Below, piece by piece: positions 7,301 to 53,480 of a DNA stretch of 57,907 nt. This stretch comes from an uncultured Nitrososphaeraceae archaeon. GTDB lineage: Archaea; Thermoproteota; Nitrososphaeria; Nitrososphaerales; Nitrososphaeraceae. Within the stretch, counting starts at the first letter, position 1; the number at the start of each line of letters is the position of its first letter. Location of the stretch: NCBI GenBank assembly GCA_963825865.1, contig CAWGVG010000052.1, positions 1 to 57,907 of the forward strand, given 5' to 3'. The position numbers were made by a program, and so were the translations under genes. The notes under the pieces are model-generated. The model worked only from the letters and a program-made list of their open reading frames with translations. It was not told the DNA's origin and did no database searches.

Positions 7301-7689
7301 AGATTTTCATTAAAACTTCCTTGCTGGTCCGATAATTCGCGGTGCTCACAAGATGTGTACCGTGATTCACAGGTACGAGCAACGAATCGTATTTTTCGCG
7401 CCTATTATTGTAGATATATATTCATGCTTACATCTTTGGATAAAGTCTTGCACTTTTATGTCTGTATCAGCATTGAAAAATGTCGAATCAGTAAAGCCAA
7501 ACACAATCCTCCATTTGTTTATGGATACGTCTACCCTCAGTCTGTTATACATTCAGCAACCTGATAATTGGCAAATTCAAAATACTCATTTCCGAACAGG
7601 CCAAAGCCAGCATTAACGAAAAGTTTGGCACCGAGTTGATGTGTCTGATATTCTTCTATTGACTTTGAATCACAATTGGGTTTTTCCTT

Positions 7690-8170
7690 TTCCTCTTTTA
7701 ACAAAACCAAATATTTGTTACGATCAGATGGTTGTTTGTTCTAGTACTTTGGGAAAGGCGCCGTTTCTTTGCTGACATACCCAGTATCTATCCACCTTAC
7801 GAGGAATATCGTTTTCTTGCAGCTGTTCATTGTGTCTATTGTTTCCATGCATTTTCATTATCTTTCCAGCAGTTACAGTTCAAAGTGTCAAATGAAAAAT
7901 TATTATTTATTACGATACTAGGATACTGACCTTTTAGATCAAGTTCATAGATTTTTGTCACTACAAAAAATGTCCACCACCCATCGCCTGTCTATCTAAC
8001 TTGTAGTTTGGTGTATAGGAAATAGTACATTTCGCCCGATTCTAACATCTTCCTGTATCGAGTAGCATACCATGTACCTAATCTCAGTATGACAGACCAA
8101 CGAATAATCCATCTTTGCATAGGCGAGCGAAAATTTTCATGATTCTTAAGGCAAGACAGTTATGTATCAA
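7690..8170 (-). pseudogene. Family-B DNA polymerase internal (palm, motif A) fragment
   Basis: Manual translation ...QAMGGGH...KIYELDLKGQYPSIVINNNFSFDTLNCNC...YWVCQQRNGAFPKVL. DxxxxYPSI motif A lies at 7914-7940. Several frameshifts and deletions. Confidence 0.8.
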
Positions 8171-12274: not shown

Positions 12275-13174
12275 TCATTCGATATCAATTTCCTTCTCGT
12301 TATAAGTAATGATATTACCGACATTTTCTGATTTATCGTATATTATCAGAAGTGCGTTGCATTTTGATCCTTTGATATTAGTAGGAACGAAGATATTAAA
12401 TGAAATTGAAAGTTCTTTATTTTTTACTAATTCCTGCCCATAGCTAATTAGCCCACAGGTAAAATCATATTCTTTACCATCAGAATTGGTTATTAATAGC
12501 TTGATAAATCCTTTCATTTGTGATGCTTCAATCGTGGTATTTACCTGCACTGCCTGTTCTGTTTTTATTTTATCAGATATCACGAAGTCTAGGATTTTCA
12601 CCTTGCCTTTTATGGCCCTATCCATAAACCACTTCTCATTAAGTACAAAATATGCATCGAAATATTCCTTTAACATAGGAGAAATCCCACTCTCAAAAAA
12701 GATTCCGAATACCCGTTTTCCTGTGTTTTTCACTGCGTCTACTACTGGCATATGGTCTTCATCTCCAGACAACAAAATCGCAATATCGTAATGATTTTCA
12801 TATGCCTTTGATAACATATCAACAGCAATTAGAGTGTCTACACGTTTTTGTTCATATCCCCGTTTTTTGGTAAACTTGAGATTTCCTATTCTATCTTCAA
12901 ATCCAGGTAGGTTTCTTATCCTCTGTATATGTATGTCCTGCATTTTTTCTTTTTTATCAGGAACTGCTAAAGTCGCATCGTAATAATAGACTCTAACAAT
13001 ATCAAACAGAAAGTAAGGCAAAGATAGCTCCATCTTTACTGCGTCTACAAAGCTTTTATAATCTATAATATCCTCAGAGAATAAACGTTTTAAATTTTCC
13101 CTCAAATGTCCTGCATCAATAAAAATCATCACTCGCAAAGTGCCGAAAACTTGAGAATTAATTTGAGCACTCAA
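12275..13174 (-). CDS. NYN (LabA/DUF88, PIN-like) domain protein with an extra beta-rich C-terminal domain
   Basis: IFIDAGHL, RVYYYDA, EQKRVDTLIAVDML, ILLSGDEDHMPVVDAVKNTGKRV. Confidence 0.88.
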   Translation of the reverse strand: MSAQINSQVFGTLRVMIFIDAGHLRENLKRLFSEDIIDYKSFVDAVKMELSLPYFLFDIVRVYYYDATLAVPDKKEKMQDIHIQRIRNLPGFEDRIGNLKFTKKRGYEQKRVDTLIAVDMLSKAYENHYDIAILLSGDEDHMPVVDAVKNTGKRVFGIFFESGISPMLKEYFDAYFVLNEKWFMDRAIKGKVKILDFVISDKIKTEQAVQVNTTIEASQMKGFIKLLITNSDGKEYDFTCGLISYGQELVKNKELSISFNIFVPTNIKGSKCNALLIIYDKSENVGNIITYNEKEIDIE

Positions 13175-13283
13175 TATCTGACCATGATTAATGATATTGA
13201 TAAAAATATTTAGCTTATCATTATTTCTTTATGGTCTATCAAAAACAAATAATTTTATACTGTAGATAAACTTTGCAAAATAT

Positions 13284-16549: not shown

Positions 16550-18031
16550 ATGAACTTAAAACAATGGTGTGAATTAGATGAACTCATATATGTATCACAA
16601 ACCGATGAAGAATACAAGCGCTATGCAGGTCTCAATTATAATGAAAAAATGATAGAACGGCTTGCGGAAATGAAAATAAGTAATTCAAACATATTCATCG
16701 ATTTTTTTTCGCAGCCCAAACCTGTTCTGCTTGGAGCAATAGAAGATATTGCCTATTCTAAGACTAAGAAACTGGAACTAGAGCTGCACAATACAAGAAA
16801 CACGAATATTACCTCCTCAAGACATATGTTCAAGGATTCTCCAGTAAACTGGAGTACATGGCGCCAATTCAATAGCTTTGAAAAAGAACCAAAAAATCGA
16901 AAGGAGGTATTTGATGAATTTATTGAAAAATCCAAATACATCGCACCAATCGTAGAGAATAGGTTTTCGAAAATAAAACAAGTCTACGAGGAAAATAGAC
17001 ACAGCAAAGATGATAAAGAAATGAATAATCAGCTAGATCCAGTCTCTGCTTACTTAGAGCAAGAAAATATTTCATATGAAAAATTAATTGACTTTATAAA
17101 ATACATGGGACAAAGAGCAAAGAAACCATTCAAAGATGCAGTGGCTGATATTGGTAAGATGGTTCTTGGTAAAGAACCGGAATATTACGATGATTTTTAC
17201 TTTTTTAGAAACAAAATATATTCTGACATAGACAGCAATTTCTTAACTATAGATCCACTCAGCGAGGTCAAAAAAATACTAACTAATATGGAATTTGATT
17301 TGTCTAAAATCTATTTTGATACTGAAGATAGAGGGAACAAATATCCATCACCCATATGCTTCTTTGTAAAGATACCTACTGATATACGAATACTCTATAA
17401 GAGGGAGAGCCCATATTTTGACCTTCAGGCTTGTTTTCATGAAACAGGACATGCCATGCATGCTAGTTCTGTCGATGCAGAAAATGAGTATTGGGATAAA
17501 TATAGAATTCCAATGGGGATAGCAGAAGTATTTTCTACATTTTTAGAACGACTAACAAAAAACAGCAGGTATATAGAATCATTGTTTAGTTCAAAAGAAA
17601 ATCAAAACATGATCAGCAAACTCATATCAAGAACCCATTTTATGGAATTATTTTTTATCACGTTTTATGCAGCAAATTCGTTAATGAAGTTGGCATATTG
17701 GAAGGAAAACTTGTCAATACACCAAACATCTGAACTTTACTACAGGTTAATAAAAGAATATACAGGATTTGAGATGCCCGGAGAATATTGGTTACTACAT
17801 CACATTCTTCCCGAATCAATAATGTATGTACCAAGTTACCTGCTTGCGGCTGTAAGGGCAGCAGAACTAGAGATACATATTAGAAATAAACATAGCGATA
17901 AATGGTGGAAAGAAAAACAAGCAGGGAAAGATCTTAGGGAAATAATGAAATCCGGAGCAAAAATCGACCTATCTATATTTTCAAAACTTGATAGCAATGC
18001 ATTTTTGCAAGAGATAACACAGCAAGTATAG
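16550..18031 (+). CDS. M3/M32-like gluzincin metallopeptidase (oligopeptidase-like)
   Basis: FHETGHAMH (HExxH) with downstream GIAEVFS third ligand and YVPSYLLA; intact ~493 aa. Confidence 0.8.
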   Translation: MNLKQWCELDELIYVSQTDEEYKRYAGLNYNEKMIERLAEMKISNSNIFIDFFSQPKPVLLGAIEDIAYSKTKKLELELHNTRNTNITSSRHMFKDSPVNWSTWRQFNSFEKEPKNRKEVFDEFIEKSKYIAPIVENRFSKIKQVYEENRHSKDDKEMNNQLDPVSAYLEQENISYEKLIDFIKYMGQRAKKPFKDAVADIGKMVLGKEPEYYDDFYFFRNKIYSDIDSNFLTIDPLSEVKKILTNMEFDLSKIYFDTEDRGNKYPSPICFFVKIPTDIRILYKRESPYFDLQACFHETGHAMHASSVDAENEYWDKYRIPMGIAEVFSTFLERLTKNSRYIESLFSSKENQNMISKLISRTHFMELFFITFYAANSLMKLAYWKENLSIHQTSELYYRLIKEYTGFEMPGEYWLLHHILPESIMYVPSYLLAAVRAAELEIHIRNKHSDKWWKEKQAGKDLREIMKSGAKIDLSIFSKLDSNAFLQEITQQV

Positions 18032-18138
18032 ATATGAGTAAGGATCCTGTGTCTACTTCTTCTTCTACCTCATCTTCTCGTCTAAAAAAATCACACTCAT
18101 TCTTGATGTACTTCAATACCTTCTCTAGACTCCAATCT

Positions 18139-18583
18139 TTATGATAAACCCATGTGTTGGGTAAAACAGGGTGATCTCAGCTCTTTTTCTTCAATTTCGT
18201 GCATCCGTCGCATTCTAATAGTATTGTCATTTTTTAAAACCAAATGCACAAGATAATATAGTGGTAAATTTTCATTAAAAATCTCACTTTCAGTATATTC
18301 AGTCGTATCTGGATAACCATAAGGGAGCTTTCCCTTATCAAACATTAGCTTTGGACATTACCTCTTGATTTATTATTGCGTCCATCTCGTTTCCATTTGG
18401 GCTTCTAAGATAGTCATCTAATTCTAAAGCATTCTCGTATAACTTTCGCTCAATTTCTTTATTATCAGTTATGTATTCCGATATTTCTTGATGTAATTGA
18501 TGTAGCATTACGGGGCGATCCTTTAAAACCGTCTGTATAAAATCTTCGACTTTTTCTATCAGAGTCATCATCAAGTTGTACAT
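18139..18583 (-). CDS. Hypothetical protein(s), probably one frameshifted gene
   Basis: Two overlapping ORFs with protein-like composition and no recognisable motif. Confidence 0.4.
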
Positions 18584-18735
18584 TGAATAAACCTTATCTT
18601 TTTTTGATCAAAAGACAATTACTAAAATGTGCTATAAATAAAAGAAAAATATTGAGTGCATGCAGTTGCCATTTAGCATATATCAACAAAGAGCGCATTG
18701 AGTTGATTTAATTATTTTACTTTTATTAGAAACAG

Positions 18736-19858
18736 TACTATACTCACTAACATTAATTCGCTAACTCATATTTCTCGATAGATACTTGGCTATGTGTAGT
18801 TTGAAACGCTTTGTTCTATAGTAGTTAGCTATAGCACATGTTAGATCTTGAAATCTAGGATAGTATTTTGATACAAGCAGATTATATTTTCCCTGTCTCC
18901 AGCACTCTTCGACGGCATTGAATTCAGACGAACCTTTTGGAAAGTATATCACTTTTAATACATCTCTTCTGTCTTTATGTACTTTCTTACCATCTTGGAG
19001 CGATGATGTTGACGTGCTCTATCTATAAACAATATCAGTCGGCCAAATCTGTTTTGCATATGTTTGATATAATCCAGAAAAGTGTATTGGTTAAAGCTAT
19101 CATATTGTCGGAAGAATTGTCTACCGTCTATACATAGGGCACCAAATACACAAGTCCTTTGATGTGATCCAGTCATTGTTACAATTGGTCTTATTCTATC
19201 TGCCGTCCACATCTTCCTTCGAATCAAAGAATCATGTATAAAGATGGATTCATCAGCAACAGCGACAGTGAATCCTTCAGGTATATGCGAGATTATCTGT
19301 TTAGCCTTTTTCGAAATTTATCTTTCTCTTGCTTTGATGCAGCATTAACAAATCTCATTCTGGGTACTTTAGGACTGAAACCCCATCTATGTAATAGTCG
19401 ATAGATGTGAACTTCATGATATTTGACTCCTGTTATTTCATATATCAAATTCATCACTTCTTTAGCCATCCATCCTGACTGATTTTTTGACAATTCTCTT
19501 CTTATCCCAGTAGATGTTTCTTTTGATACTTCTGGAGGTCTACCGCTCCTATGCTTATTCTTTAGTCCTTTCAAACCAGCATTATCAAATCTCTTGAGCC
19601 ATTTGTAAGCCCACCATCTAGATCTATGGAATTCTTTCTCAGATACACTGGCTGCTTCTTTCTTATCCATTCTGACACGTCTTACAAGCAAAATCCTTTC
19701 TCGAATATTCGCATCCTTTTCATTTCTATAAGCATCGTTTAAAACTGCAACAGACATCAAAGTGAATACTCTGAGTATATTCATAACATATTCAAGCTAA
19801 ATTGATATTGAACTAGATCGTTAGACAGTTGTATCAAATTATGTTAGGCAGTCTAGTA
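18736..19858 (-). mobile_element. IS630-family insertion sequence
   Basis: Imperfect IR TACTATACTCACTAACATTAATTCG (18736-18760) versus reverse complement TACTAGACTGCCTAACATAATTTG (19835-19858), TA ends, internal transposase. Confidence 0.8.
18761..19757 (-). CDS. IS630 transposase in three frames (HTH + DDE_3)
   Basis: WAYKWLKRF...RSGRPP...LHRWGFSPKVP, then ADESIF, IDRARQH and EFNAVEECWRQ. Confidence 0.88.
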
Positions 19859-20204
19859 TTAGTGTAATATTATTAAGTACTAACCTTAAGACATGAATTT
19901 CATAGTATAGAAAATAAGAGGGTGACTAAAGCAAAATCCAAGGATGTGTCAGACATTTTTAACTATATGATCCTTACCATCCTTAGGATCCTTCCATATA
20001 GACAGATCTTGATTTCTGATAATAGAATTACTGCTTGGGTTAATCGATAATGGTCGTAAGCATAGTAAGAGTGGTGTGATCTAAAGTTTCTAGACATCAA
20101 TGCCAAGTAGTTATAAACCATCTCACACAGGACCCATTATGTACAAAGGAAAATATGCTATAGTCAAACCTCTAATTCCATTATTTTATATTGAACAGAA
20201 TGTT

Positions 20205-20870
20205 ACGCAAGAAGAATTTGGCATGATGATTGATATTTAGCTAACGATTCATCCCTTTGAATATTGTTTGCCTTGTTATTAATATCATTTTTCTTGTTTG
20301 CCCTGCTAGTGTAAATAGTATCAAATACTGTTACATCATCATCTTCAATAATTGTTGGGAATATCTGGTCTTCCAACTTTTGTATATCACAAGCCAGTAA
20401 TCTTAGGACTTCTTTTACAAGCTTCCAAAGTTCTACTTTATAGACATCAATATTAAGATCCTGATAGTTTGTTGAATATCCCTTATAGCCATCTTCTTGC
20501 TAGCCAGTTTTGTAATATTTGATTAAGCTACCAGATTCTTTGTTTAGCGATTTACCTATTTTGTGTTGTGGTGTATAAGATTGGTAGTTATCAGGATCTT
20601 TATTCAAAATAATCGAATATGCCAAGAGAGATGGATCAACTTCTGCTGCTTCTAATTGTTTGAATGCTCTTAGTACATTGAAAGTCAAATCAGGTTTATT
20701 ATTTTTATAATCATCAACCAGCTGGTTGAATACCAGATTGAAGAATGGAGGTCTATCTCTTTTCTTACCTTCCATCCCCTTTATGATCACTTTACCATCT
20801 GCTTGAATGCCTATGTAATGTTTTTTGCTAAGCAATATGCTTCTAACGAAGGTATTCTGATGTCGACTGT
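20205..20870 (-). pseudogene. Family-B DNA polymerase C-terminal (thumb) fragment, copy 1
   Basis: KKHYIGIQADGKVIIKGMEGKKRDRPPFF corresponds to the KKxY / KGxExxRxD motifs. There is an in-frame TAG at 20500, after which the frame continues QEDGYKGYSTNYQDL. Confidence 0.85.
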
Positions 20871-21230
20871 AAACACATCGTAATTTAAGTAGTTATTGGA
20901 TTACTCATTTTTTCATAATATTTTCTTGTATGTTGTTGTTTCAAGTTATTGTTAATAAATTAGGCAAGGTTCCGCAGATGATCATATGCTGCAGTCTGGA
21001 TACAGCTTATATTTACTTATGAAACAGCAATAGCGACAGGAATAATGAAACTACGAAGAAGTACTATATGTTTCTGTTATTTCCCCTATTATCCCTGTAA
21101 TAAGACCCGATTGGCATTCGTAGTGGATGAGTATTTTGTCTTCTAACTATACTTATATAATTCTGTTTACCAGTACATAATTGGCACGATAAACGTCTCG
21201 GTCCCAGGAAAGAGAGTATTTGCACAATAC

Positions 21231-24200
21231 ATGCAGCCGATAAGTTTGGCATTTGCCGTCGTATGCGTTATGCTTCTTGTTCTTAATCCTTTTCAGTTAA
21301 TATGGTCGCACCCTGCTGCTTCTACACGTTCCGTTCAACACGCAATTGCAAGAAGAATTGATAAGGCTGCTGCGGAACAAGAAATAGAAAACGTTATTTC
21401 AGCACTTAACGGAGTGCAAGCTTTTGGCTTTGGAGGCAAAGATTCCTTTGGCAAACCCATCACTCCCATTCTTGATGGACCTATTGGGTAGCGGCGTGAT
21501 TTACACACAACTTTTTCAGTTTTCAGATGGCAGTTATACTAACCCCTACAAAAATTCTGTCGAGAAGATAAGGAATACTGATGGTACTTCATGTTTTTAT
21601 GTTGCATATACAGATCCTAAAAGCCCGTACTGGTATGACAATTGGAATACAGTAGAAACTGATGACGCGAATTACGGTGTAGTATCAAAGGGTAGTTCTT
21701 TCAGGTTTTGGGCGGGTGACTCCAGACCCCTCTCTGATATGTTAAGTGGAAATCCTAGCGGCTATGCTACTAATTGGAATCCTTATTCATCAGGCATAGC
21801 TGAAGCAGGGCCTTGGGAACACTTACAGAAACCCTTCGTTGTTCTTAAACCAGGCACATCAGATACATTTGGAGCTACTTTCCCTCTTGGTAGAGGACCT
21901 GCTCCACACTGGTTCAAGGTATGTTTAGATCAAAATGGTCAACCGACAATTGATCGCACACACAATTCTGCATTGTTGCCGGTCAACCAAACAACAAAGG
22001 ATCCAGGTTGGTGGCAGAATTACCGTGGACTTTGTAGTAATTTCTTAGGCTGTGAATGGGCACCGGGAGAAGAATGGGTCTGTAATACAGCTGATCCTAA
22101 TAGCTGCCGAGACCAGTTTCCTCCAGGAGGAACACGGCTGATATGCACTAATCCTCAAAATGATACTAACCAAGATCCTCATACTAATCCTAATTGTGTT
22201 CGTACTTATTATCGGCTAAATAACGATTACAATCAGTTGGACAATCCCCAATGCAGTGATGGGTGCATTGCTTGGCCTTCTGGAGTTGCGACTGGAGTTA
22301 TTACTCAAGGGTGGAGATCTGGACAGGACGGTTCAGGAACCCATTATACTCCGTGGTCTGATAATTACCATGGAAACTTCCCGCCAGAACGGTCAATAAA
22401 GGACACGTCTGAATGCAGCGACCTGTTGTCTTTTGGCTTTGCAAAGGCTTATTGCAATGATGTGGAATTTGGTTTGTGGCCAGATTCTCAATCGAGGAAT
22501 CTTGCCTCAAATTTTTCATCAACTTTATGTAACTATGATCCGGTACATGGATCTCCTCACCCTGATAACCCATGTCCAACACATTCTGGCTTAGGTGCGA
22601 ATGTATGGACAGAGATTGAACAATGGCAAGTTCCACTGGGATATAGGCCAGATCCTGGAGACAGAGGTACCCTTATCGGAAGAAAGATTGTGGACATGGC
22701 TCATGATGACGACCATTTCGAATTGCATCCTATAGAGGCAGCAGAGAGTACCTTTTTGCAGACTGGGCCACTTCAACGATATGAACCATACGTGGCGATT
22801 TCGCCCGATCAAAAATACGAACCAAATCAATTTTCCCCATTCACCATTAGCAGCGACGCTGCTTTTCCATCAATAGCCAATTACACTGTAAATGGCTACG
22901 CTAGATTGTACATGGCTTGGCTTGGTACAGACTCTGCAATTCACTTCAGCTCCTATGATGGAAATACCTGGACACCAGACCAACAGGCTACAACAACTGG
23001 AGTCGGTGTGGGTCCATCTTTGGCCACATACAATGGTAGATTATATTTAGCTTGGAAAGATCAGGACAAAGGGATTCATGTTAGCTCATGTTCTACTCCT
23101 TGTCTTGACATGAATAGCTGGACACAAGCGTCGACGTTGGTACCAAACATCGGCAGCAGCGTTGGTCCCTCATTAGCTGTTTACAATGGCAAATTATATA
23201 TGGCCTGGAAAGGGATCGGATTAGATAATAGAATTTGGTTTAGTAGTTATGATAGTTCTTCATCAATACCATTAACAGATCAATTACAGCGGCAGCAACC
23301 AACCACTTTTGCCATTCATGCTGACACTATCCCATCGTTAGTTGGATATAATGGTTTATTGTACATGGCTTGGGAATATACAGACAATTCAATTCATTTT
23401 AGCTCATATGACGGAAGTAATTGGACAACTGAACAAACTGGTTCAGATACTAATACAGTCTTCACAACTGGCGTAGGACCATCATTCAGCTACTTTCAAG
23501 GACAAATTGTACATGACTTGGAAAGATCAAGCTGCAGGGATATGGTATAGCTCGTATGATGGAAATAGCAATAAATGGTCAACCGAGACGATGGCGCCAG
23601 GGCATGGTGTAACTTTTGCGACCGCTGATCTCCCATCATTAGCTACGTTCAACAACAAATTGTACATGACTTGGAGAGATTCGTTGACCTGTAACTCTGG
23701 ACCTATTACTATCTGTGTGCCAGCACACATTTACTATAGTTCATTTGACGGGCAGAACTGGCAGACGGGTATGGGAAATCTTCCAACTATATCAGAGCAT
23801 TGGAATGCTTATACCCATGGAAACAATGCAGCAGTAACAAAACTTGTCGTGACTCAGGATTGGCAAGGTAACCCGCTAGAGTTTGACGTCTGGCCTCCTG
23901 CTAGGCCCGATGCCAGCTCCAAGATGCACTGGCAACATGATGAAGTATATCATCCGATTAATCCCGCCGATCATCAACCTTACATCAATGTCACAATCAC
24001 TGAATTTCCAGATCATCTTCATGTAAAAATAACTCCTAATATTGCATTGGATGCATTTTACTTTGATACTGACGTTCCAGATGGTGTACACCTAGACTGC
24101 AACTGTATTAGCAGAGAAGTAGTTTACTCTTTCATGTTATGGTGGGAGGCACCCTATTCATATTCTTCACAATTTGGCTCTTTAGGGTACTGGTAATGGC

Positions 24201-25097
24201 CAATTTGGTAACAATTCGGCTTATCATACCAAAGGTCCATTTAGTGTTGCATTTGACCATTCTGATCCTGTTGATGGTTCTGTGCTGTATGTGACCGATC
24301 CTGCTAACAATAGAACACAAAAATTTACTACCGCAGGTACATTTGTTAAGAGAATGGGGCAAGGCCGGTAGCGGAGTCGCTGACATGAGTCATCCCTTTG
24401 GTGTACTGTCAATCCTGTTACACATAATGTTTACGTGACTGATGATGATCATCATCGCGTTCAGGAATTTACAGACGTTGGAACCTGGATCAGAAACTGG
24501 GGTGGATACGGAAATGCCACAGAAAATGGAAAATTCGATCACCCTGAAGGCATTGCTGTAGATCCATCCGGTCAGTTTGTTTACGTCGCGGACGATAATA
24601 AGCATATACAAAAGTTTACTTCCGATGGTCAGTTCGTAATGAAATTCGGTTCTCCTGGAGAAATCAATGGGAGTTTCTATTCTGTTCCTAAGGGTTTGGC
24701 TGTTGATTCCTCTGGCAACATTTATGTTTCAGACACTCACGACTTTCGTGTCCAAAAGTTTAATAGCAATGGAAATTTCATCGTGACAAAATGGACCAAA
24801 CAAGGTGGGCAACCAGGCTCTGGCGACGGAGAATTTGCTCCGAGTAGTGTAGACGGTGGAGGTCCGCACGGGATTGCTGTTGACCATGAAGGTAATGTGT
24901 ATGTTGCAGATACAGGTAATAATCGAATACAAAAGTTTTCAAGTGATGGGACTTTTTTGGCAAAATGGGGTTCTTACGGCACAGCCGAAGGCCAATTAAA
25001 TGAACCTATGGGTGTTGTAGTTGATCAATCTGGTAACGTTTACGTAGCTGATTCCTGGAATTTTCGTATTCAGATATTTGTACCGTCTTCTCCTTGA
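21231..25097 (+). CDS. Large secreted multidomain protein (~1290 aa if frameshifts are repaired): signal peptide, Cys-rich region, five GPSLAxYNGxLYxAW propeller repeats, C-terminal NHL propeller
   Basis: ORFs 21231, 21424, 23507 and 24435 join by single-base shifts, e.g. QFGSLG|TGNGQF at ~24185. NHL motifs PxGIAVD..GNVYVADxxNxRIQKF are present. Confidence 0.75.
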
Positions 25098-25833
25098 AAC
25101 ACACTACAGTCATGGTCGGCTCAGCTTCAATCTATCGATATAATCGTGGCTCATCAACACACAATACCATCGCCGATGTTTGTTACAATGGTGCAGGATT
25201 GCAGGTTTCAGTCGAATCTAACAACATGATTAATGTTTGCGATCGGTGGCTCTCGTAGTCGTAACATGGTAAAGGCAAATTTGCATAATCATTTTTTGAA
25301 AATCTAACTGATAGACGCACGTAGACAAGGCTGGTTAATTCTTTCTAGGTTAGAGTCATTTCCACCTTATAGCAAAAAAAAGAATATTTATTGCATGTAA
25401 CGGGAAAGTCTTAACCATACTATCGCAGGAGACAACAAATTACAAGATTCTCCGAAGTGCTCTTCGATAGATTATGTTGTACAGATATTTTCTAACAAAG
25501 ATTTGAAGACAGGGATTTATCACTGCCGTCGCTACTGAGAAAGCACACGCTGCATTCATCAGAGGGGGAATACCAATGCATATCGCTTGATTTTCAACCA
25601 CAACCGTTGTATTCCCATTATTTTTTTATTGCATTTATTGCATCGCCTAATCCTGTAGCAACGAGATCCTTTGTAAAAATCAATCGCTTCGGTAGTTAAA
25701 GCCCTGTTCGCCAACTGGTTTGTGATTTTTGTGTTAACATTTTCGGATTGTATCTTTAACACTTCAATTAGTATTGCATTATTGATATTTGAAGCAACAA
25801 TCGCCAGAATGTGCTATTAGTCTGAAGAGGTTA

Positions 25834-26946
25834 TTACGGAGGAGCACAAGCTATAACAACAGATGGACATTTCTCAAATGCCACCCTGTGTATAAGATGA
25901 CCCGGTCTTGACCCTGACAGACTTTTATAAAATATGTGAAAGTCAGCGTTAAAAGTATTGGGGTCTCCTACATTGTCATAAAACAGAGCATAGGGACGAC
26001 TATCTAAATTACCACCTAAATCTTCATTAGCTAAATTTTGTTTCCCCGTTTTGGCGTCGAATACTGCATGCCATAAATGATGATTTAGCCCTGCATAGAA
26101 TATATCAACGCCACGATGAGCGTCTACAACAGGAGCTGAAGAAAGGTCCAGCTGTAAATCTGTGAGTTTACCCGGAGGCGAACCGCCTGGCAATTCATAT
26201 TGGTAAAGGACATACGGGCAGGCTGGAGATCCTATTGTTCCATGTGGACAGCCTGGAGCCGGCCCGGCAAAATATATATCAATCCCATTTGACCCCTGCA
26301 CAACAGACGGTCTTGACCAAGGCGCTTGATCCAACAAAATGTTTCCTAAATCTTGCTTGATGGGAACCCATCCGTTTTCTAAAGACCACGTTGTACGCCA
26401 CAGATGACCGTCAGTACCACCATAGTAAATGTCAAAACCGTTACCATGAAGAATACATACTGCTGTAGGCGGCGTTCCAACTCCCTCACCTAGATCTTTT
26501 ACACTAGTAGGGTTATTTCCCCAATGCCAAAGATGGTTGTCAGTACCCTCATAAAAAAGATTAAGGTGATTGGGAACACCGCAAGAAACAGCTGAAGCAC
26601 CTGTGCCCTGAAAAGATGAAGTTTTTATGGGAGCTGGGCCTACCCAACAATGACAACTATTGGCATTCGAAGGATTCCATTCAAAGATTTTATCAAATAA
26701 AGTGCCCCCTGGACCTTGATAAATTACATCAAGTCCACCTCGGTCTTCTGAGTGAGCAGGAGATTCTACTGATACAGTAGGAGATGAAGTCATTTCGCCA
26801 CCAAGGTCTTCTTCGTTAGTAACACTAAGAAATGCTTTTACATTTTGCAAAATGGGCAAGTTCAAAATTATTACAACTAACGCTAATAAAATCAAAGAAA
26901 ATGTGAAAACTTTTGACAAACCTCTCATAGTATGAGGTTTTTCCAT
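25834..26946 (-). CDS. Secreted beta-propeller protein resembling PLL/fucose-binding lectins
   Basis: Signal peptide ending VKA; repeats LNLFYEGTDNHLWHW, FDIYYGGTDGHLWRTTW, VDIFYAGLNHHLWHAVF with (E/Q)DLG linkers. Confidence 0.7.
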   Translation of the reverse strand: MEKPHTMRGLSKVFTFSLILLALVVIILNLPILQNVKAFLSVTNEEDLGGEMTSSPTVSVESPAHSEDRGGLDVIYQGPGGTLFDKIFEWNPSNANSCHCWVGPAPIKTSSFQGTGASAVSCGVPNHLNLFYEGTDNHLWHWGNNPTSVKDLGEGVGTPPTAVCILHGNGFDIYYGGTDGHLWRTTWSLENGWVPIKQDLGNILLDQAPWSRPSVVQGSNGIDIYFAGPAPGCPHGTIGSPACPYVLYQYELPGGSPPGKLTDLQLDLSSAPVVDAHRGVDIFYAGLNHHLWHAVFDAKTGKQNLANEDLGGNLDSRPYALFYDNVGDPNTFNADFHIFYKSLSGSRPGHLIHRVAFEKCPSVVIACAPP

Positions 26947-28120
26947 ATACGATAAAAGTATTAGTTATTTATAAGTGTTGAATCTTATAAACTAATCACG
27001 GAACACATTGACATAGTTAACAAAAAAAGGGGCAGATCAAGAAATAAGGAAGTTTGACAATTCTTAATCCTGTCCTATTCCTAATCCTGTCAAGGACTAT
27101 TCCATTTGCAAAGATAAGGTGCATGCTATGAAAGCTACGGGTCTAGCAATGTACATTATTCGATTTGAATGAATATAGAAAAGACGCTGAACACAAACGT
27201 CACTATAACAGGCTTTGCAATGTTCCTAATTACACCATTATTCTATAGTATATGTATATCTTTGATCGTTGCTGCTATTGCGATTGTTCTTTGATTTGTT
27301 GTGATGAGTGTATCAATTGTTGGCCTCGTGCCGTTCTCTTTACAAAGTGACGCCAACTCGCTAGAATATAATATGGAACCATAGTTATCATTATTGTTAA
27401 TAGATTTATTGCTGTGGGTATGGAACCTATGATATCTGCCTAAGCGTTTTGTATTGCTCAAACATTGTTATTATAAGTTACATACACTAATGAAAATGTC
27501 TCTGGTAGCATAGTTCATCCTTTTTTTAACTATCTATTTTGACGGTTATTAGTAATTTGAGGAATTATTAGATCTCTAATAATAGGAAAAGTATCATCAA
27601 CTGAAATACACGTGCTGCAGGACAGCAAAAGTATTCTTTCAGATCAGATATCAGATTAAGTGTCCTTCAGCAATAGAAAAATTATGTATACGCGAATAAT
27701 AGTTTATTGAGCAATTTATTAGATACGTGGGTGGTTTCTGAAAATATTATAATCAAATCAAGTAACTACAGATTTAAGACTATTGGTTCAGCCGGCACAT
27801 CGAATTTTGTGTTAAATAGATATCAATTTGTCAAATATGCATTAAAGGCGGTTATTAATTGGATGCTCTACGGATACACACTTTTACCATTTCGTCGAGG
27901 ATGAATTATCCTCACAGTGGGGTTTAGACCATTCTGTAATGATGTTAAATTATATGTTTGGGGTACTCTCATCATACAATGTTTGAATGTTGGAAAGTGA
28001 TATGGATCACATTTATTTTCAGAAAGAAATTTCATGGAAAAAATTAGGAATTCTGTAAATAGGCTTGTTGAAACCATTAATCAGAGAAGGAAGAAAAAAG
28101 CACAAGTCGCAGTCAGGGCT

Positions 28121-28672
28121 GATGATCGATACTTATCTAAGGATTCATTCCTTTGAATATTACTTGCTTTTCCATCATTGTTATTAATGTCGTGGCAATC
28201 TCAGACCGTTGGAAATATCTGACCTTCTAGTTTTTGGATATTGCAATCCAGTAGTCTTAAAAGATCTTTTATCAGCTTCCAGAGTTCTATTTTATAGATA
28301 TCGATATCAAGGTCCTGATAGTTTGTAGAATATCCTTTGTACCCATCTTCTTGCTGTCCAGTTTTATAATAGTTAATTAAGATACCTTGTACTTTTTTTA
28401 GTGATTTACCTATTTTGTGTTGTGGTGTATAAGATTGGTAGTTATCAGGATCTTTATTCAAAATAATCGAATATGCCAAGAGAGATGGATCAACTTCTGC
28501 TGCATCTAATTGTTTGAATGCTCTTAGTACATTGAAAGTCAAATCAGGTTTATTATTTTTATAATCGTCAATCAGCTGGCAGAATACCTGATTGAAAAAT
28601 GGAGGCCTATCTCTTTTTTTGCCTTCCATTCCCTTTACGATCACTTTACCATTTGATTGAATACCTATGTAA
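28121..28672 (-). pseudogene. Family-B DNA polymerase C-terminal fragment, copy 2 (direct repeat of 20225-20820)
   Basis: YIGIQSNGKVIVKGMEGKKRDRPPFF; 28403-28566 matches 20549-20712 at 163 of 164 bases. Confidence 0.85.
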
Positions 28673-28707
28673 CTTATTATATTGTCATTCTGCAGCATAA
28701 AATATCT

Positions 28708-28900
28708 TTAAACTCTCTGATTATTGTCGTTGAATTCATCCTTTAATTCTTTGTTTTCTGGCATACGACTACCGATGTATTTTTTCTTTAGTTTCTTGCT
28801 TTCAGTATCTTTCCAGTATGCATAGTAGTAAGGCCCATGTTTTTGTTCACACATCTGCTTACCGCACTTAATGTATTCCTTTCTCACTGTTGCCGCTGAT
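28708..28900 (-). pseudogene. DUF6788-like Cys/His protein, C-terminal part
   Basis: ATVRKEYIKCGKQMCEQKHGPYYYAYWKDTESKKLKKKYIG; the upstream part is frameshifted. Confidence 0.65.
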
Positions 28901-29530
28901 TTGGCTCTATTAGCACAAGCAAGCTGTCTTGATTTTATTTTATTTATGAACTTGGTCGCTCTATCTGTATGGCCACATTGAACGTAAGAAGGCTATTTTT
29001 TCCTGTTACCATTTTGCTCTTACTCTATGGCAGCAGCTAAAATATCTCCACCACCTCCACTACCTCCACGTTCGCTTGTCAATAGGAGCGAGATTTGAGC
29101 TTCTTTTAGTGGAGTTATTGTAATTAGATATCTCCATCAATAATGAGAGATTATTTAAATTCTATTCAGCTAACGATGATGGCATATCGATGTATGACAA
29201 TAATCCTGTTTTATTCTACACTGCTGTAGTATATTATATGTAATGTCTGTAATGTAATCAAATCCAATTATGTCCATCAGGTATGCAATCCACCTTTGAC
29301 GTGGATCTCTTTCACGAATTTGATACCGTCTGCAAGAGAACTGCTTTCTACGTTGTGTAGATTTTGGATGCTCGCTAGACTTTCATTTAGTAATTGTTTA
29401 GGACTATTATTATGCCATTTTTTGAAATCCCGATGATCAACTGTTATTTGTTTTATTGAGGGTCAAATAGAATCAAAGATGCATAATATAAAATAAAGGG
29501 AATTTAGCTATATTCTTTAGAGTTAATGTC

Positions 29531-29591
29531 CTGTACTAGCAAATGCTGCCGCACGGATCATGTGTCTGTCCAACTGTACTAGCAAATGCTG
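29531..29591. repeat. 18-bp direct repeat with a 25-bp spacer
   Basis: CTGTACTAGCAAATGCTG at 29531-29548 and 29574-29591. Confidence 0.9.
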
Positions 29592-29712
29592 TGTGCGTTT
29601 CAAACATTCCTAATGCTGCTCCAACTGCTATACTCAGTCCCAATCCTATACCAATTATGACTAGTTTTGGATGTGTGGATATTGCATTTAGAAGTTTTTG
29701 TTTTATTAACAT
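29536..29712 (-). CDS. 58-aa precursor-like peptide: HPKL-type leader ending AFA plus a 14-aa core
   Basis: MLIKQKLLNAISTHPKLVIIGIGLGLSIAVGAALGMFETHTAFA-STVGQTHDPCGSIC*. Below the ORF-track size cutoff; a TATA-like TTATATA lies upstream. Confidence 0.7.
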   Translation of the reverse strand: MLIKQKLLNAISTHPKLVIIGIGLGLSIAVGAALGMFETHTAFASTVGQTHDPCGSIC

Positions 29713-29821
29713 ATTTGTATCACATGAACCTTGCGTAGTATATAATGCGGTGTAGACAATAACTATTATTTTTCAGTTGCATAGCTTAGCAATTTCTATA
29801 TAAGCCATTATGTAACAATGA

Positions 29822-30898
29822 GACATAATTCTATGTTAGGTGACAGTCCGGATAAAAGCTACGCTGGGTATGCGGCCTGTAAATTGATTCGAGCCTTGTC
29901 CATTATATCCACCGTGAGTCCTCTCATACACCAGCTTGATTCATAAAAAACCATTCTCGCTTGTCAAATTGATATATTTATTCTGGAGGTACCCTTAAGT
30001 CTAATTCGTGTTGAGTGAGCTCGTGCGCACATTATTTATAATTCAGTGTGTTAGAGATCATGTGATGATAGAAGATTTTTATTCTCAGTTATATTAGGCA
30101 GTTAAATCGATTGCGGTCATCATATCCAGAATCAGCAGCCATGTAATGTACTCCTTGTGGAAGTGAGGATGTTATTGTGGGATATATCTGATTATCTTGT
30201 ACATTAGCTCGTGTAAAGTCTGCTGATAGAGGTACTATGAGCGAACCAGTACTTGCTGTTATGTGGAGTTTATAACCAAATATCCAACCTTTGGTGTGAC
30301 TGAATCCCCATCTAGCATCTGTATCTATACCTAAACGTGGGACTATTCCTTTATTCATAGATGATTTGTGCCAGAGATGTCCTTTGGCTCTAAGCAATGT
30401 ACTATCTATTGCAACAATGTATGGGTCAACCAATCTTTCATTTACAAATAGATTTCCCATAGTTGATATCCTTTCTTTGGTGTCTACAGATATTGTCGAA
30501 AGTCTTCTGTCAAATGTCCTTCTGTCAGGAAGACTGGTTAATCCACATGCTTTCAACACCTTTCTGTTATATGGATAACAATCCATGGAAAGATAATCAT
30601 GTAATGCTCTGTTAGAATCAAATCTCAGCCATATCCTAACTACAAAACAACGTAGTATTACAGTTGGAGGATATACAAATGGTCTACCTCTTCTCTTTCT
30701 CTGAGATTCTGGCCAACGTATCAACCCTATCAAATATAGAATGCTAATTAAGATGGATTCTGATGATGTAATATTTGTTGTAGCTAGCCTTTGTGACTGT
30801 TTGAAGGTTTGTCACCACAAAACATCAGATATCCTGAGGTTAGCTTTATACCAAATCATCAATGGAAATTGGCAAAACTATGAACAGGGAATTATGCC
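29822..30898 (-). mobile_element. Degraded IS with a DDE_Tnp_1-type transposase (IS4/IS5 superfamily)
   Basis: Imperfect IR GACATAATTCTATGTT (29822-29837) / AACAGGGAATTATGCC (30883-30898) around a truncated transposase. Confidence 0.55.
30089..30733 (-). pseudogene. DDE_Tnp_1 transposase, truncated after the second Asp
   Basis: RGRPFVYP, LPDRRTFDRR, VAIDSTLL, DTDARWG...FGYKLH and ADSGYD, then unrelated sequence. Confidence 0.85.
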
Positions 30899-31396
30899 CC
30901 AGCCTCAACTAACTAACTAACTATATGTGCCACAGCGATACGTATTGTGAAGCTTATACGCGCGCGTACCGCGATCAGTGGGCAGTTTTAGAAAACAGTG
31001 GAAATGTACATAACAACAGCTTTGCTAGTAGGTACAGATCAGAATGAAGCCGCTTCTGTAAATATACAAGGAAATAATAATAATAATAAAGTGAACATAT
31101 GACAAGCTGAATAATCGCATCAAAGCTTTGCTAGCGGCGAGTTAGATTTTACACCGGGACATATGGTTTTAGGTTCTCCTAGTGGTAGTAATAGTGGCGC
31201 AGATAATCCGAGGTGCGTCTTACTTTATGCCTCTATAAAGTAAATAATTTTCCTTCTTTTTTAGGTTGCTTATGTTGGTCAGCTTAAATGAGCTACATTT
31301 TCATTTAGCCTGCCAATAACTAAATAACAGAGCAGACAACATTAGGGGAAATTAATCATCACTAATAGCGCCCAAGGATAAAAAAATAAAAATATC

Positions 31397-31714
31397 TTAA
31401 ATTAAATGATTTTCGCTTATCTTAAGCCATTCTATCTTTTCTTGGTAATTGGGCATGTATCTACGCACATGATCCCAATAATGATAAGAATGCTCCTTTA
31501 TTTTCAAATGACATATCTCATGCAATATTATATAATCAACAACCTCTTCGGGAGCCTTTAGAAGGTTTAAGTTGAGGTTAATTGAGCCTTCTTTTGTCAT
31601 ACTGCCCCATCTATTTTTCAAGTTCTTTATAACAATCCTTTCTGCTTTAACGCCAAGTTTTTTTGAATATTCTTCTACTTTGTGTTTGAATATGGATTGC
31701 GCCTTTTCTATCAA
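31397..31714 (-). pseudogene. YgjP/DUF45 (SprT/M48-like) zinc metallopeptidase, C-terminal half
   Basis: KNRWGS...NLNLLKAPEEVVDYIILHEICHLKIKEHS..YW; the N-terminal half is absent. Confidence 0.8.
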
Positions 31715-32121
31715 CCAATCTTCGTAGAGTTTTTTGATTGACGTGTATATACGGTTGTCTTAAAGGTATGACCATAGCGAATGAAATCTGCAGTATACTC
31801 TGCAGCTGCCCCTACTTTGCTCTCTCCTTCCCTCTTTCTTTGACTTTCAATCTCGCGCTTCTTTCGTAGAAATAGAATTAGTGCCGTAACATGGTCACAA
31901 TTATTGCCATCGCCGGCTTCACATGTACAGCCAATAGTTACGTCCAATTCCATAGCACCAGATTGTGTTAAGGCACCAGATTGTGTTAAGGCACCAGATT
32001 GTGTTAAGTTTACTGTATAGAGGTTTGAATCTTCCTTATAGCGATACAGAGTTAGATGGTGACACACGCCGTCTCCACCGATATCCGATATAAAATGTTG
32101 GGCATCAAATGTTATCTGCAC
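31711..32121 (-). CDS. SWIM zinc-finger-containing protein, probably chimeric or partial
   Basis: CTCEAGDGNNCDHVTALIL fits CxC-xn-CxH. Confidence 0.6.
   Translation of the reverse strand: MQITFDAQHFISDIGGDGVCHHLTLYRYKEDSNLYTVNLTQSGALTQSGALTQSGAMELDVTIGCTCEAGDGNNCDHVTALILFLRKKREIESQRKREGESKVGAAAEYTADFIRYGHTFKTTVYTRQSKNSTKIG
31955..32008. repeat. Perfect 18-bp tandem repeat x3 (LTQSGA)
   Basis: GCACCAGATTGTGTTAAG at 31955, 31973 and 31991. Confidence 0.95.
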
Positions 32122-34961: not shown

Positions 34962-35093
34962 TATGTTACAATATTGTTATGTTACCAATTAATAGTAACA
35001 TAAATATGTATCATTCTAATTTTTCCTCTGTCAATGGCCTTACTGGAACCTGGTCCTTTCTTATCTTGAGTTTCTCAAATGTGTCTGCTTGTG
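34962..35093 (-). repeat. Dispersed repeat, copy A (gene tail KLKIRKDQVPVRPLTEEKLE* plus palindrome)
   Basis: Homologous to 36077-36240 (inverted) and 51238-51396; contains TTATGTTAC-N9-GTAACATAA. Confidence 0.8.
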
Positions 35094-35157
35094 TTTATTA
35101 AAAGGAAAGATACTATTATCCCTGTTACTGCTACAAAAGCAAACGGCCATCAACAGG

Positions 35158-35933
35158 TTGTAGATGTACTTTCCAAAGAAACAGGCCTCTCAATATCAAT
35201 TGATTATAACTACAAGTTTTTAGTGCTATTACCTATTGAAGCTGATGAAAACATAGAGGCACTCAAACATTACTATGGCGTTACTCAACAAGGCAAGTTG
35301 GTTGTCAGGGGTATAGAAATTAGTAGACATGATATTCCAAACTTTATAAAGCAATTTCAAACTGAATTGCTATACACGCTTTTTAATTGCAAAGATTCAG
35401 CTGAAGTGGAAAGCAAAGGATATGAAAATGCTCTTTTACTGGTCACCAAGGCAATAGATAAAATTATGACAGGTGAAGAGATTCAGCAACAAGATCTCGT
35501 GATTTCTAAATTACTTGGACAGGATATAGAAAAATACAAGAGTTTATTTCCCCATGTATCCGCTGCCATTCAATTAAGCAATACTGGGGGAGGTAAATAT
35601 CCAAGAAAAGGTGAAACTATTCAGTATATCTATACGGATTCACAGCACAAGAATCCCCTTTGCAGAGTTGTACCTTTAGAGATTTTACAAAAAGTAGGAG
35701 AAAAAGAGAAAGATGGTAAGGAGAATGGTAAAACTCTGAATTATTATGACAAGGATAAATACAGAGAAATGATACTTGATGCTGCAGAAACTGTATTAGG
35801 CTATTTTGGCTTTGATAAAACTGTTTATGAAAATCCTGGGAATAATAGAAAGAAAAAGAGAAAATGGTATAAGGAATTGCATGAAGAAAGAACAAAAGAT
35901 ATCCATGCAGAGATGATGATGGAAAAACATTAA
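35158..35933 (+). pseudogene. Family-B DNA polymerase C-terminal fragment of a second PolB lineage
   Basis: LKHYYGVTQQGKLVVRGIEISRHDIPNFIKQFQ, LVISK.L...Y...PHV.AA, GETIQYIYT, YDKDKY; no exonuclease domain or motif A. Confidence 0.85.
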
Positions 35934-36385: not shown

Positions 36386-37959
36386 TTAAGCTGGTTCTGT
36401 ATGTACTATAATTCTGGAGGCTCCAGTATCTTTGATAATCTTATTTTGTATGTTTGTGGCTATTGTATGAGCCTCTTCTACTGTAGTAGTGGTTTTTTCT
36501 ATACCTGGTTTTATCTTTACTGTCAAAGTAATATGTCGTTCACCATTGACATCTACTACCCCAATATCACTACAATCAACTACTCGGTCAAAAGATAAAG
36601 CTATACTCATTATTTTCTCCATGTAGGGTTGATTGATTCTTTTTTTGAGTGCCTATTGCTACATATTCGCTAACCTCTGTTTCTATATGTGTAGTGGCTT
36701 TTCCTATTAAGGGAATCTCATCTTTAAGTCTTTTTTCAAAATTGTCTATGACTTTATGAGCAGTGTTAAGGTCAAGGCTAACGTCCATTTGTACATCAAG
36801 ATACAGATGCAGTAGTGATGGTTTGCTTTCCTTCTGAAGATCTGATAAATTCTTCTTAGAACTCGCTGTCACTCGTTTTTCCTTTTCGTCTCCACTTTCT
36901 CCTTCCGTAGCTTCTTCTTCTGATGATGACGGTATACCCGATAGATATATTGAATGAACATTCCTTATACCTTCTGTCTCTGCTGCAATAAGCCTGATTC
37001 TATCAGTTATTGTCTCGCCTGATGATTCTGTTGCATCTACATGCACTAATACATCAGAGTTTGGAAAGCTTTCTTTTACCTTTTCTTCAACAGCTGTCGC
37101 TACTCTATGAGTCTTTATCATGCGTATATGTTCTTGGAACTTCAATATGCATATCCACAAAGGTTTCTGATCCTACATTTCTAATGCGAACGTTGTGTGC
37201 TCTATCGACGCCCTCAAGTCCGGATACTGTTTCCAAAATTTGTTGTTGTGCTCCCTTAGGCGCCTTATCTAATAATACATTTAATGTTCTTCTTCCCAAT
37301 CCTAGTGATGTATATATTATCATTGCTGCTACAATAATTGCAGCAAAAGCATCAGCATTTGGTATTTTCAATAAGAATACTAAAATCAATCCCGCGATAA
37401 CAATGGCTGAGGATAGCATATCGGTTTTAAAATGCAAGGCATCTGCCTCTAACGCTTGACTACCATATTTTCTTGCAACCCTATATAATGACCTTGACCT
37501 TCCAAAATCGATAGCTATAGATACAAACATAATTGCAAACGAATACACTGTAATTTCTGGCTGAATGATTTTGAAGAATATCCTTTCTATGCCTTCATAA
37601 AATATCCACCCAGCTATTGCAAATAATAGAATTATCGCAGTTAAACTTGCTATACTTTCTATTTTAGCGTACCCATATGGATAGCTTAAATCTGGTGGCC
37701 TTATTGACATACGTATAGCATAAAGGGTCATCAATGCCGCTATAGTATCAAGCCCAGAATGAAAAGATTCAGATAAAATTCCAAGACTGTTTGTAGAAAA
37801 TCCTATAACAAGTTTTAGCATAGCAAGACTAATCGAAGCTGCAATAGAAATTGTAGCTACTTTGACCTTTTCGTTCTGTGCACTAGCTTTTGTTATGATT
37901 GATGCTCCTGCTTTTTGCTTATCTTCATGTACCTTATAGTAGTCACTATTATCTACCAC
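36386..37959 (-). CDS. Cation diffusion facilitator (FieF-like) with three C-terminal ZT_dimer domains, two frameshifts
   Basis: SESFHSGLD, YPYGYAKIE, ADALHFKTD, and three (V/T)H(V/I/T)(D/E) domain ends. Confidence 0.9.
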
Positions 37960-38507
37960 AATTGACTTTCAAATACTTACAATATCATATATGTCTTATC
38001 TAAACTTTATAGTTAACTTTTAATGAATATTACTACCCTGTTTGCTATATATTGTAATATGTCTCAACTTGTCATACTTTATACAAAAAGCATAACAGGC
38101 TTATTTCATCTGGACTGTATGGCTGACACATACCATCGAAGTAAACTTCTATTTTTTGTATTGCCAAATCTTTTCGACTATTGCCATCTCTTGTACTCTT
38201 TCATTACAACTAATATCGTGGATATGATAGCGATCACCTAATATTATATCATAAGAATAGGAAATGAATATGAAAGAGGCTCATCTATATCTTTAATTTA
38301 TATCTTTATTTATCCAAATACATAACATCAAACTCAATTGCTAATCTTCTCCAGATATAGATGTCAAATCTCGGTGATTGCACTTTAATATATCACTTAA
38401 TAGTGCTCTTTCTATTTTCTTTATCTTTCTTACAATTAGATAAATGGTTCATAATATAGTAATATGAAGATTTTTATATGAATAATTGACAATGAAAGAG
38501 TAAACTT

Positions 38508-53206: not shown

Positions 53207-53480
53207 AAATCATCCAAAAATTAGATAAGAACTTTGTTGGCCTGTCATAAAGCCTACTATGAGAAGAAAAAGCATCATATGTTGTTGGAGTATCAAAATA
53301 AGAGGAACAGAAAGATGATTTTTTATTGAATACAACGTTTGAAGTCGTTATAAATCTTCATGTGGCATACATGTTAGCGCATTTCGATCCATGTCTTCTT
53401 GTAATACATTGAATCTGGTGGAGGAAGAACAGATACATCTAGCGATAAAATTTAAGTACTATCTAAATGCATTAATTGAT

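Follow-up and report, generated by a model that had tools for sequence, protein, structure and literature searches.

In an uncultured Nitrososphaeraceae archaeon, two truncated copies of a PolB gene end lie in the same orientation around 7.3 kb of accessory DNA and share a core of 164 bp that is almost free of differences. We consider that they are probably what remains of the PolB ends of two related integrated elements after erosion by deletions and insertion sequence (IS) insertions, and that ectopic gene conversion later homogenised them. The window in which they lie (57,907 nucleotides) is the entire contig C52 (GenBank CAWGVG010000052.1) of assembly GCA_963825865.1, here called G000; other genomes of the family are given G numbers and contigs C numbers. 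G000 amounts to 4.98 Mb in 62 contigs, with a guanine plus cytosine (GC) content of 35% and a completeness of 81.8%, and it encodes an archaeal AmoA (383 bits). The two copies, tail A and tail B, are the following:

20224-20862, minus strand: PolB tail A, 5'-truncated pseudogene, amino acids (aa) ~521-736 of a 750-aa relative.
28120-28672, minus strand: PolB tail B, 5'-truncated pseudogene, aa 536-736 of the same 750-aa relative.

An earlier note on this DNA had described two same-orientation copies of a PolB tail, each of about 550-600 bp, and this description holds: the direct repeat is 595 bp long in A (20224-20818) and 553 bp in B (28120-28672), with a spacer of 7301 bp, and the repeat search pairs 20354-20653 with 28208-28507 at 87% and 20224-20289 with 28120-28185 at 77%. 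The PolB similarity of A extends past the repeat, up to 20862. Tail A matches Pfam PF00136 with 34.3 bits (cut-off 23, profile positions 270-399), and its closest matches are G064 (82% identical, with a frame that is open to the contig end) and the 750-aa gene of G073 (~73-74% over aa 521-736). Tail B has no Pfam match at E<=0.01, yet it is 65% identical to aa 536-736 of the G073 PolB.

Judged from their sequences, A and B are 5'-truncated dead ends of PolB genes. The stretch that carries YGDTDS in the relative lies before the start of both copies, so that each is wanting the catalytic DTDS motif as well as the whole gene, and a search for PolB N-terminal similarity upstream of A or B returned nothing but chance matches (E>1). 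At 20497-20499, A has a TAG in frame in place of the CAG of B, and the open reading frame (ORF) of A stops at 20203-20205; in B there is a premature in-frame TGA at 28201-28203 and, in the C-terminal extension, a net in-frame deletion of 42 nt relative to A. The homology between A and B, as well as that of each copy to its relatives, ends within ~20 nt of the PolB stop. Together with the differing truncation points (20862 and 28672), this indicates two gene ends placed in different DNA and not one duplicated segment.

The near-identical core occupies the following positions:

20549-20712, minus strand: core of tail A, apparent donor type of the tract.
28403-28566, minus strand: core of tail B, putative converted tract.

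In an ungapped register (offset 7854), A and B differ at 54 of the 465 bases across 20354-20818, and these differences are very unevenly distributed. The cores match at 163 of 164 bases, the sole mismatch being at 20650, a third codon position, whereas the 3' flank matches at 156 of 195 bases (80%) and the 5' flank at 92 of 106 (87%). When the mismatches were shuffled 200,000 times, a 164-base window with at most one mismatch was never obtained, and a perfect run of at least 101 bases was obtained four times. Third codon positions differ at 31 of 155 overall versus 1 of 54 in the core (hypergeometric P ~6e-6). The synonymous rate (dS) and the ratio of the non-synonymous to the synonymous rate (dN/dS), computed by the Nei-Gojobori method, are 1.06 and 0.10 in the 3' flank (64 codons) and 0.43 and 0.21 in the 5' flank (35 codons), while in the core none of the 33 synonymous sites is changed and there is one non-synonymous change. 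These values support the view that the tails are separately evolved PolB alleles, diverged under purifying selection. The earlier note, which had reported the single-base difference between the two cores and had read the mostly synonymous divergence of the flanks as a sign of separately selected alleles, was right on both counts (dN/dS 0.10-0.21); the comparison of identity and dN/dS between the copies, which it had called for, shows a divergence that is far from uniform (core dS 0 versus 0.43-1.06 in the flanks).

A generally hyper-conserved stretch, such as an attachment (att) site or an RNA element inside PolB, was considered as an explanation for the core and rejected, given that relatives are 59-90% identical there. 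In particular, four relatives that span the entire core agree with A or B at 134-148 of its 164 positions and with each other at 120-137, and two more match A or B at 111-114 of 149-150 positions. With 97-148 matches over 149-164 positions in all, the relatives are not unusually conserved in this region; the near-identity is thus specific to the A/B pair, which supports a pair-specific recombination tract. What is seen here is the pattern of a gene conversion: a near-identical patch that includes the synonymous sites, diverged flanks, unchanged parentage and no general conservation.

The parentage of the tract is informative in this respect. Tail A resembles G064, G073 and G054, and tail B belongs to a more divergent lineage which is also present in contig C26, where a third end-piece (aa 648-747) is 87-90% identical to B and 78% identical to A; two PolB lineages therefore coexist in G000. 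At the sites of the 3' flank where A and B differ, the relatives side with A over B by 27 to 6 (G064), 27 to 4 (G073) and 23 to 9 (G054), and in the 5' flank by 9 to 5, 8 to 5 and 7 to 1, respectively. The identity of G064 is 90% in the core, 86-89% to the flanks of A and 75-85% to the flanks of B. The relatives thus agree with A both before and after the core; this is consistent with a patch conversion and not with a crossover at the core. The patchy identity had been attributed in the earlier note to crossover or gene conversion: the recombination patch stands, as gene conversion, and a crossover at the core is not supported, there being no switch of parentage across it. The simplest reading of these sequence comparisons is a non-crossover patch conversion between repeats already in place, which would have run from A to B.

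An assembly or polishing artefact of the long-read metagenome assembly might also produce an identical core, and the contig does carry errors. Short-read contigs from public runs lack single bases that are present in the window, at 23487 (runs X1 and X2) and at 21488 (X2), and dropping both bases merges three ORFs into a single open frame of 987 aa; the assembly of C52 therefore contains single-base indel errors. The ORFs of the window are short and several housekeeping genes are split, namely those for trpD (44878-45889), a short-chain dehydrogenase of the SDR type (52366-53209), UDP-glucose dehydrogenase (41836-42875) and a CDF transporter for cation efflux (36591-37968). Uncorrected long-read indel errors are probably present in the G000 assembly, and the completeness estimate may be lowered by them. 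An alternative genetic code was discarded (neither table 4 nor TAG read as Q gave a general lengthening of the ORFs), and single-base errors of the assembly, together with real decay, account better for the short ORFs. As a consequence, frameshifts by themselves do not prove that a gene of this window is a pseudogene, and those of the G000 assembly should be treated with caution as partly artefactual.

Such errors, the many split genes and the completeness of 81.8% in 62 contigs speak for an artefact. However, the errors that were seen are indels, and the 465-base register of A and B has none, with sharp edges to the tract; moreover, reads of a copy that is 12-20% divergent would be unlikely to be misplaced by the usual mappers. 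The public runs X1-X4 contain at most 0.16 of the window, with a depth of ~0-7 at the locus outside the IS elements, but two of them confirm the A side and its 5' junction with 0 differences, through short contigs that cover 20755-21006 (X1) and 20740-20989 (X4). An artefactual core is, in our opinion, highly improbable.

The relatives of the two tails place them in a recurrent genetic context. Matches to the PolB tail at E<=1e-10 occur in 44 of 151 family genomes (G000 and the unpublished G034 included). In G073 (contig C279) the intact PolB (750 aa, PF00136 132.8 bits) is the last gene of a same-strand row formed by a 386-aa integrase (phrog_1, E 1.2e-10), a 612-aa protein, a 374-aa topoisomerase-like protein (phrog_6247; DUF2399 below its cut-off), a 968-aa protein and PolB. 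Homologues in the same order, mostly in pieces, are found in G000 itself on C15 (integrase, Prim-Pol-domain protein and PolB) and also on C7, C21 and C3. The replication module is thus present in the intact relative and at these four places, and the window keeps only the PolB ends and small downstream similarities.

G000 is rich in decayed copies of this element, and PF00136 (DNA_pol_B) is matched 22 times over 14 of its contigs. Among the relics of this PolB lineage in other genomes, the one of G054 is cut at aa 485, the one of G029 at aa 499, and G030 retains a short piece only, while G059 and G026 have in common an internal deletion of aa 211-588. In the latter two (G059:C477 and G026:C254), aa ~165-212 are joined to aa 589-750 and the tails are 98% identical; this shared pseudogene is a relic that was either inherited or transferred. 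A hot-spot of truncations within PolB was looked for and dismissed: the end points of the relics (485, 499, 521, 536, 589, 636 and 648) show no clustering beyond A and B. The apparent survival of PolB 3' ends is a bias of the search, which used the tail as query.

Further PolB material was observed in the window and on C15. A third fragment (35070-35930, plus strand, PF00136 44.2 bits) belongs to a different lineage, found in at least 10 places of G000 at ~80-85% aa identity (C10, C57, C47, C54, C9, C36 and others), and looks like a recently expanded PolB-bearing element. A fourth piece (7534-7958, minus strand) comes from the middle of the protein, corresponds in three frame-shifted bits to aa 52-166 of a 421-aa ORF of C3, and has a position unrelated to A and B. 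On C15, the decayed element with integrase, Prim-Pol-domain protein and PolB spans ~120.4-146.3 kb; behind its PolB lie ~17 kb of PKD/NHL/Big_9 secreted-protein genes, a caspase-domain ORF and TPR genes, followed by a unit with the segment X and the small gene Y described below. This locus is a possible model for the cargo region of the PolB element family.

The DNA around tail B carries its own traces of such elements:

28678-28992, minus strand: small gene Y, 94 aa, zinc-ribbon-like, DUF6788-like (PF20586 21.1 bits, below the cut-off of 27.2).
27826-28053, minus strand: stretch downstream of B which resembles the C-terminal extension (aa 624-698) of an 829-aa PolB ORF of C31 (tblastn, 35.5% over 76 aa, E 9e-9).
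27312-27493: segment X, 72% identical to C15:145823-145994 and 70% to C7:21716-21848.

The 5' end of B (28672) lies 6 bp from the multi-copy unit that contains Y, of which G000 holds at least 8 further copies. On C15 and C7b this unit continues for ~400 bp beyond the stop of Y, whereas at B it is cut right after the stop; the joining of a truncated PolB to a truncated Y unit points to a deletion-type breakpoint. Elsewhere in G000 (C15 and C7), X is found just upstream of Y and downstream of element PolBs. Given that 27826-28053 and X resemble element DNA, at least the first 0.8 kb of the interval taken as cargo is the own element DNA of B. As a side observation, proteins of the Y family (~90 aa) have the motif CxxC...HGPYYYAYWKD and a conserved upstream segment of ~230 bp, and often lie near element relics.

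On the 3' side of A, an IS630-like element follows after 350 bp, with host genes beyond, and a second IS lies on the far side of Y:

18736-19874, minus strand: IS630-like IS bordering the 3' side of A (Pfam DDE_3 32.1 bits; HTH_33, HTH_32 and HTH_29 on the ORFs 18955-19317 and 19293-19796), with many copies in G000, up to 94% identical.
30102-30924, minus strand: DDE_Tnp_1 (IS4/IS5-like) IS (PF01609 52.4 bits), with more than 20 copies in G000.

A composite transposon is discarded, as these flanking elements belong to different families. Other features of this surrounding DNA are a ~100-nt repeat at 29035-29155, resembling a miniature inverted-repeat transposable element, which occurs as inverted pairs 150-300 bp apart on C53, C15 (twice), C21 and C55, and, among the IS elements, an NYN-domain protein (12278-13228, minus strand) and a split YgjP-like metallopeptidase (31400-32121, minus strand), possibly leftovers of defence systems or mobile elements.

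The duplication of a gene end next to foreign DNA could also come from site-specific accretion, in which the attachment site of an integrase-borne element is the 3' part of a resident PolB and the element brings along a replacement tail, as islands do with tRNA 3' ends. Same-orientation copies of the 3' end of a gene would be expected from it, and thaumarchaeal elements are described as integrating into the 3'-distal parts of protein genes with restoration of the reading frame (PMC6563490, in the passages used here). However, in A as in B 106-150 bp of homology lie upstream of the identical tract, whereas an att duplication starts at the crossover; the att sites given in those passages are short (13 bp in one example); the window has no integrase, and B is not joined to a whole gene. 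We give this explanation almost no credence.

The DNA enclosed by the tails contains two or three genes and a unique junction:

20863-21230: junction DNA from the truncated PolB of A to the first cargo gene, with no other copy in G000.
21231-24196, plus strand: gene for a protein of ~987 aa with an N-terminal hydrophobic leader and ~50-aa blade-like repeat units (40-nt repeat family D2), split in the assembly at 21488 and 23487.
24186-25097, plus strand: coding region with NHL repeats (six-bladed propeller type), with in-frame stops near 24369-24383.
25834-26946, minus strand: gene for a 370-aa protein with an N-terminal hydrophobic helix and about six repeats of 45-50 aa, a candidate lectin-like propeller (DUF346 / PLL / fungal fucose lectin type).

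The NHL region may stand as a gene by itself or form the C-terminal part of the preceding one; the 370-aa gene is convergent to them. Its GC content distinguishes the enclosed DNA (21000-26950) from the rest of the genome, as the earlier note had proposed of its genes: 42.1%, against a mean of 35.4% (standard deviation 1.9%) in 5.95-kb windows, with the value of the cargo attained by only 0.9% of them. Searches of the 150 family genomes returned no match for the N-terminal ~480 aa of the 987-aa protein, nor for the 370-aa protein. Based on this GC value, in the top 0.9% of windows, and on the absence from the family genomes with the queries used, the cargo DNA is foreign or at least accessory.

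That these genes code for secreted propellers, as claimed in the earlier note, is borne out in part: the propeller is shown for the NHL part, whose ORF 24384-25097 matches Pfam NHL in 4 stretches with 127.5 bits and whose DNA is 66-72% similar to the NHL genes downstream of PolB on C15, and for the rest it is a reasonable lead. For the 370-aa protein, a word-indexed search of 5.8 billion proteins returned only a fragment of the protein itself, 250 aa long and encoded on a 48-kb contig, and an exhaustive search gave one relative, 42% identical, as the best match and otherwise weak repeat matches. Five of the 11 distant relatives scanned (of 148 listed) carry DUF346 or Fungal_lectin. Its matches in the ESM Atlas score below 0.9 and serve as leads only, and its single-sequence AlphaFold model is unusable (mean predicted local distance difference test score of 40.4).

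It was suggested in the earlier note that a circular cargo carrier had integrated by homologous recombination. In such a model, a circle without integrase, bearing a PolB tail fragment and the secreted-protein genes, would have entered the tail of a resident PolB through a single homologous crossover and could leave in the same way. An identity of 164 bp is long enough for homologous recombination, and the model accounts for direct, diverged alleles which have an identical tract of this length in common, for the truncated 5' end of A abutting the cargo directly (as a carrier-borne fragment would), and for a cargo that is foreign by GC content and distribution. Nevertheless, the upstream copy B should then continue into a whole PolB and is instead cut at aa 536, at the truncated Y unit, which requires an extra deletion; the parentage does not change across the core; and 27826-28053 and X, just downstream of B, are element-type DNA, found downstream of PolBs elsewhere in G000. 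The suggestion is thus not supported, and we regard it as very unlikely. Additionally, no second contig with two tails around a cargo was found among the 150 family genomes.

The searches for a circle, an empty site or an alternative cargo turned up none of these, but they had little power and do not refute the carrier. No A-B joint is present in the contigs of X1-X4, which is uninformative about excision at the depth mentioned above, with almost no cover of B. The scans of metagenome contigs, both protein-seeded and with a 29-base pattern of the core, found nothing and likewise had little power.

Alternatively, the PolB 3' end might be a habitual recombination arm between a replication module and variable cargo, the mosaic tail being the scar of a cargo exchange between co-resident elements. 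In all comparisons (A and B versus G064, G073, G054, G059 and G026) the tail homology ends close to the PolB stop, with unrelated DNA beyond; the ~17 kb that follow a PolB of the same type on C15 hold NHL/PKD secreted-protein genes, which as in the window are coded on the opposite strand; and an A-type tract does lie inside a B-type tail. On the other hand, the tract is bordered left and right by B-type sequence and hence brought no downstream DNA across by itself, and this is a single case in which both genes are now dead fragments. We consider module swapping unlikely. The stronger version, in which the PolB end is a standing cargo-exchange arm, the A-type patch is its scar and the 7.85-kb segment can still loop out as a circle into other PolB tails of the family, appears to us quite unlikely.

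We therefore return to the erosion of two related elements followed by gene conversion. The element type would be one with a tyrosine integrase, a topoisomerase-like pair, a primase-helicase and PolB as the last conserved gene, with variable DNA behind it. Two related but distinct elements of this type may have landed next to each other in the same orientation, in a tandem array or through nested insertion. Everything upstream of aa ~521 in A and of aa 536 in B would then have been lost to deletions and IS insertions, and the GC-richer genes between the tails would be accessory DNA which either arrived with such an element or replaced its body. At a later time, a non-crossover patch conversion would have written ~164 bp of A-type sequence onto B.

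Several observations weigh against this reconstruction. The status of integrated elements comes from relics only, since the window has no integrase, att repeat or tRNA: the integrase of G073 has no tblastn match on C52 at E<=1e-4 (and has matches on more than 20 other contigs), no tRNA occurs in the window, and no att pair was recognised with exact seeds of 12-13 nt in the G073 relative, C15 or C7, where short att sites could escape. Neither were the element borders found in the relative. A search by synteny brought up no empty site in relatives: G013, G015 and G014 have orthologues of the neighbouring M3 peptidase, but the genes downstream of these are not those of the window. Around B, X and Y are arranged in another order than on C15 and C7, which a simple array model leaves unexplained. 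As for the conversion, the parentage counts of the 5' flank are small (at most 14 informative sites), it is conceivable that a crossover took place at the far end of the homology and that the patch came later, and the core of B, scarcely reached by the independent contigs, could owe its sequence to a consensus artefact.

With regard to its significance, the locus is a clean and statistically solid case of ectopic gene conversion over a short tract, with dead genes of mobile elements as partners and a soil ammonia-oxidising archaeon as host. It points to a family of PolB-bearing integrative elements that multiplied and decayed in an unusually large genome (~5 Mb), and adds no new mechanism of mobility. 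Its main use is as a caution: pairs of gene-end repeats around foreign DNA can stem from the erosion of element arrays.

Several known systems can be compared with this locus. In Thaumarchaeota, integrase-borne cryptic elements with their own replication genes are described, which form arrays through the re-use of sites (Krupovic et al. 2019, PMC6563490, in the passages considered here). The likeness lies in the ammonia-oxidising host, the joint presence of integrase and primase-helicase, to which some of those elements add PolB, the tandem integration and the accessory genes; unlike them, the present locus keeps two dead PolB ends, with no integrase or att site. The gene set of integrase, topoisomerase-like pair, 968-aa protein and PolB is not met in the main-text passages of that work, whose supplementary annotation may list one. 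The same passages place PolB-bearing casposons of families 1 and 2 in Thaumarchaeota, with known tandem insertions, so that these too are PolB-bearing integrated elements from the same phylum. Unlike casposons, the intact relative in G073 carries a tyrosine integrase; the Pfam scans, which took in 66 ORFs of the window and 10 of the relative, gave no match to Cas1, and no terminal inverted repeats surround the locus, the sole inverted repeat in 17000-31000 being a 30-nt pair at 73%.

Campbell-type insertion-duplication proceeds by a single homologous crossover, as in the pop-in and pop-out of suicide plasmids; in its product, the upstream copy would continue into a whole gene and the parentage would change at the crossover. 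The locus is similar in its direct repeats of a gene segment around inserted DNA and in the possible reversal by the same recombination, and differs in that neither A nor B is continuous with a whole target gene and in that the parentage is the same before and after the shared tract. Ectopic (non-allelic) gene conversion is known between dispersed repeats or pseudogenes. Here both partners are non-functional relics of archaeal mobile elements, and the A-to-B direction is a matter of inference; the likeness is in the short near-identical tract with a dS of 0, inside diverged paralogous sequence whose flanks were not exchanged. The locus is, in sum, a new example of known things, namely ectopic gene conversion and the decay of integrative elements in ammonia-oxidising archaea.

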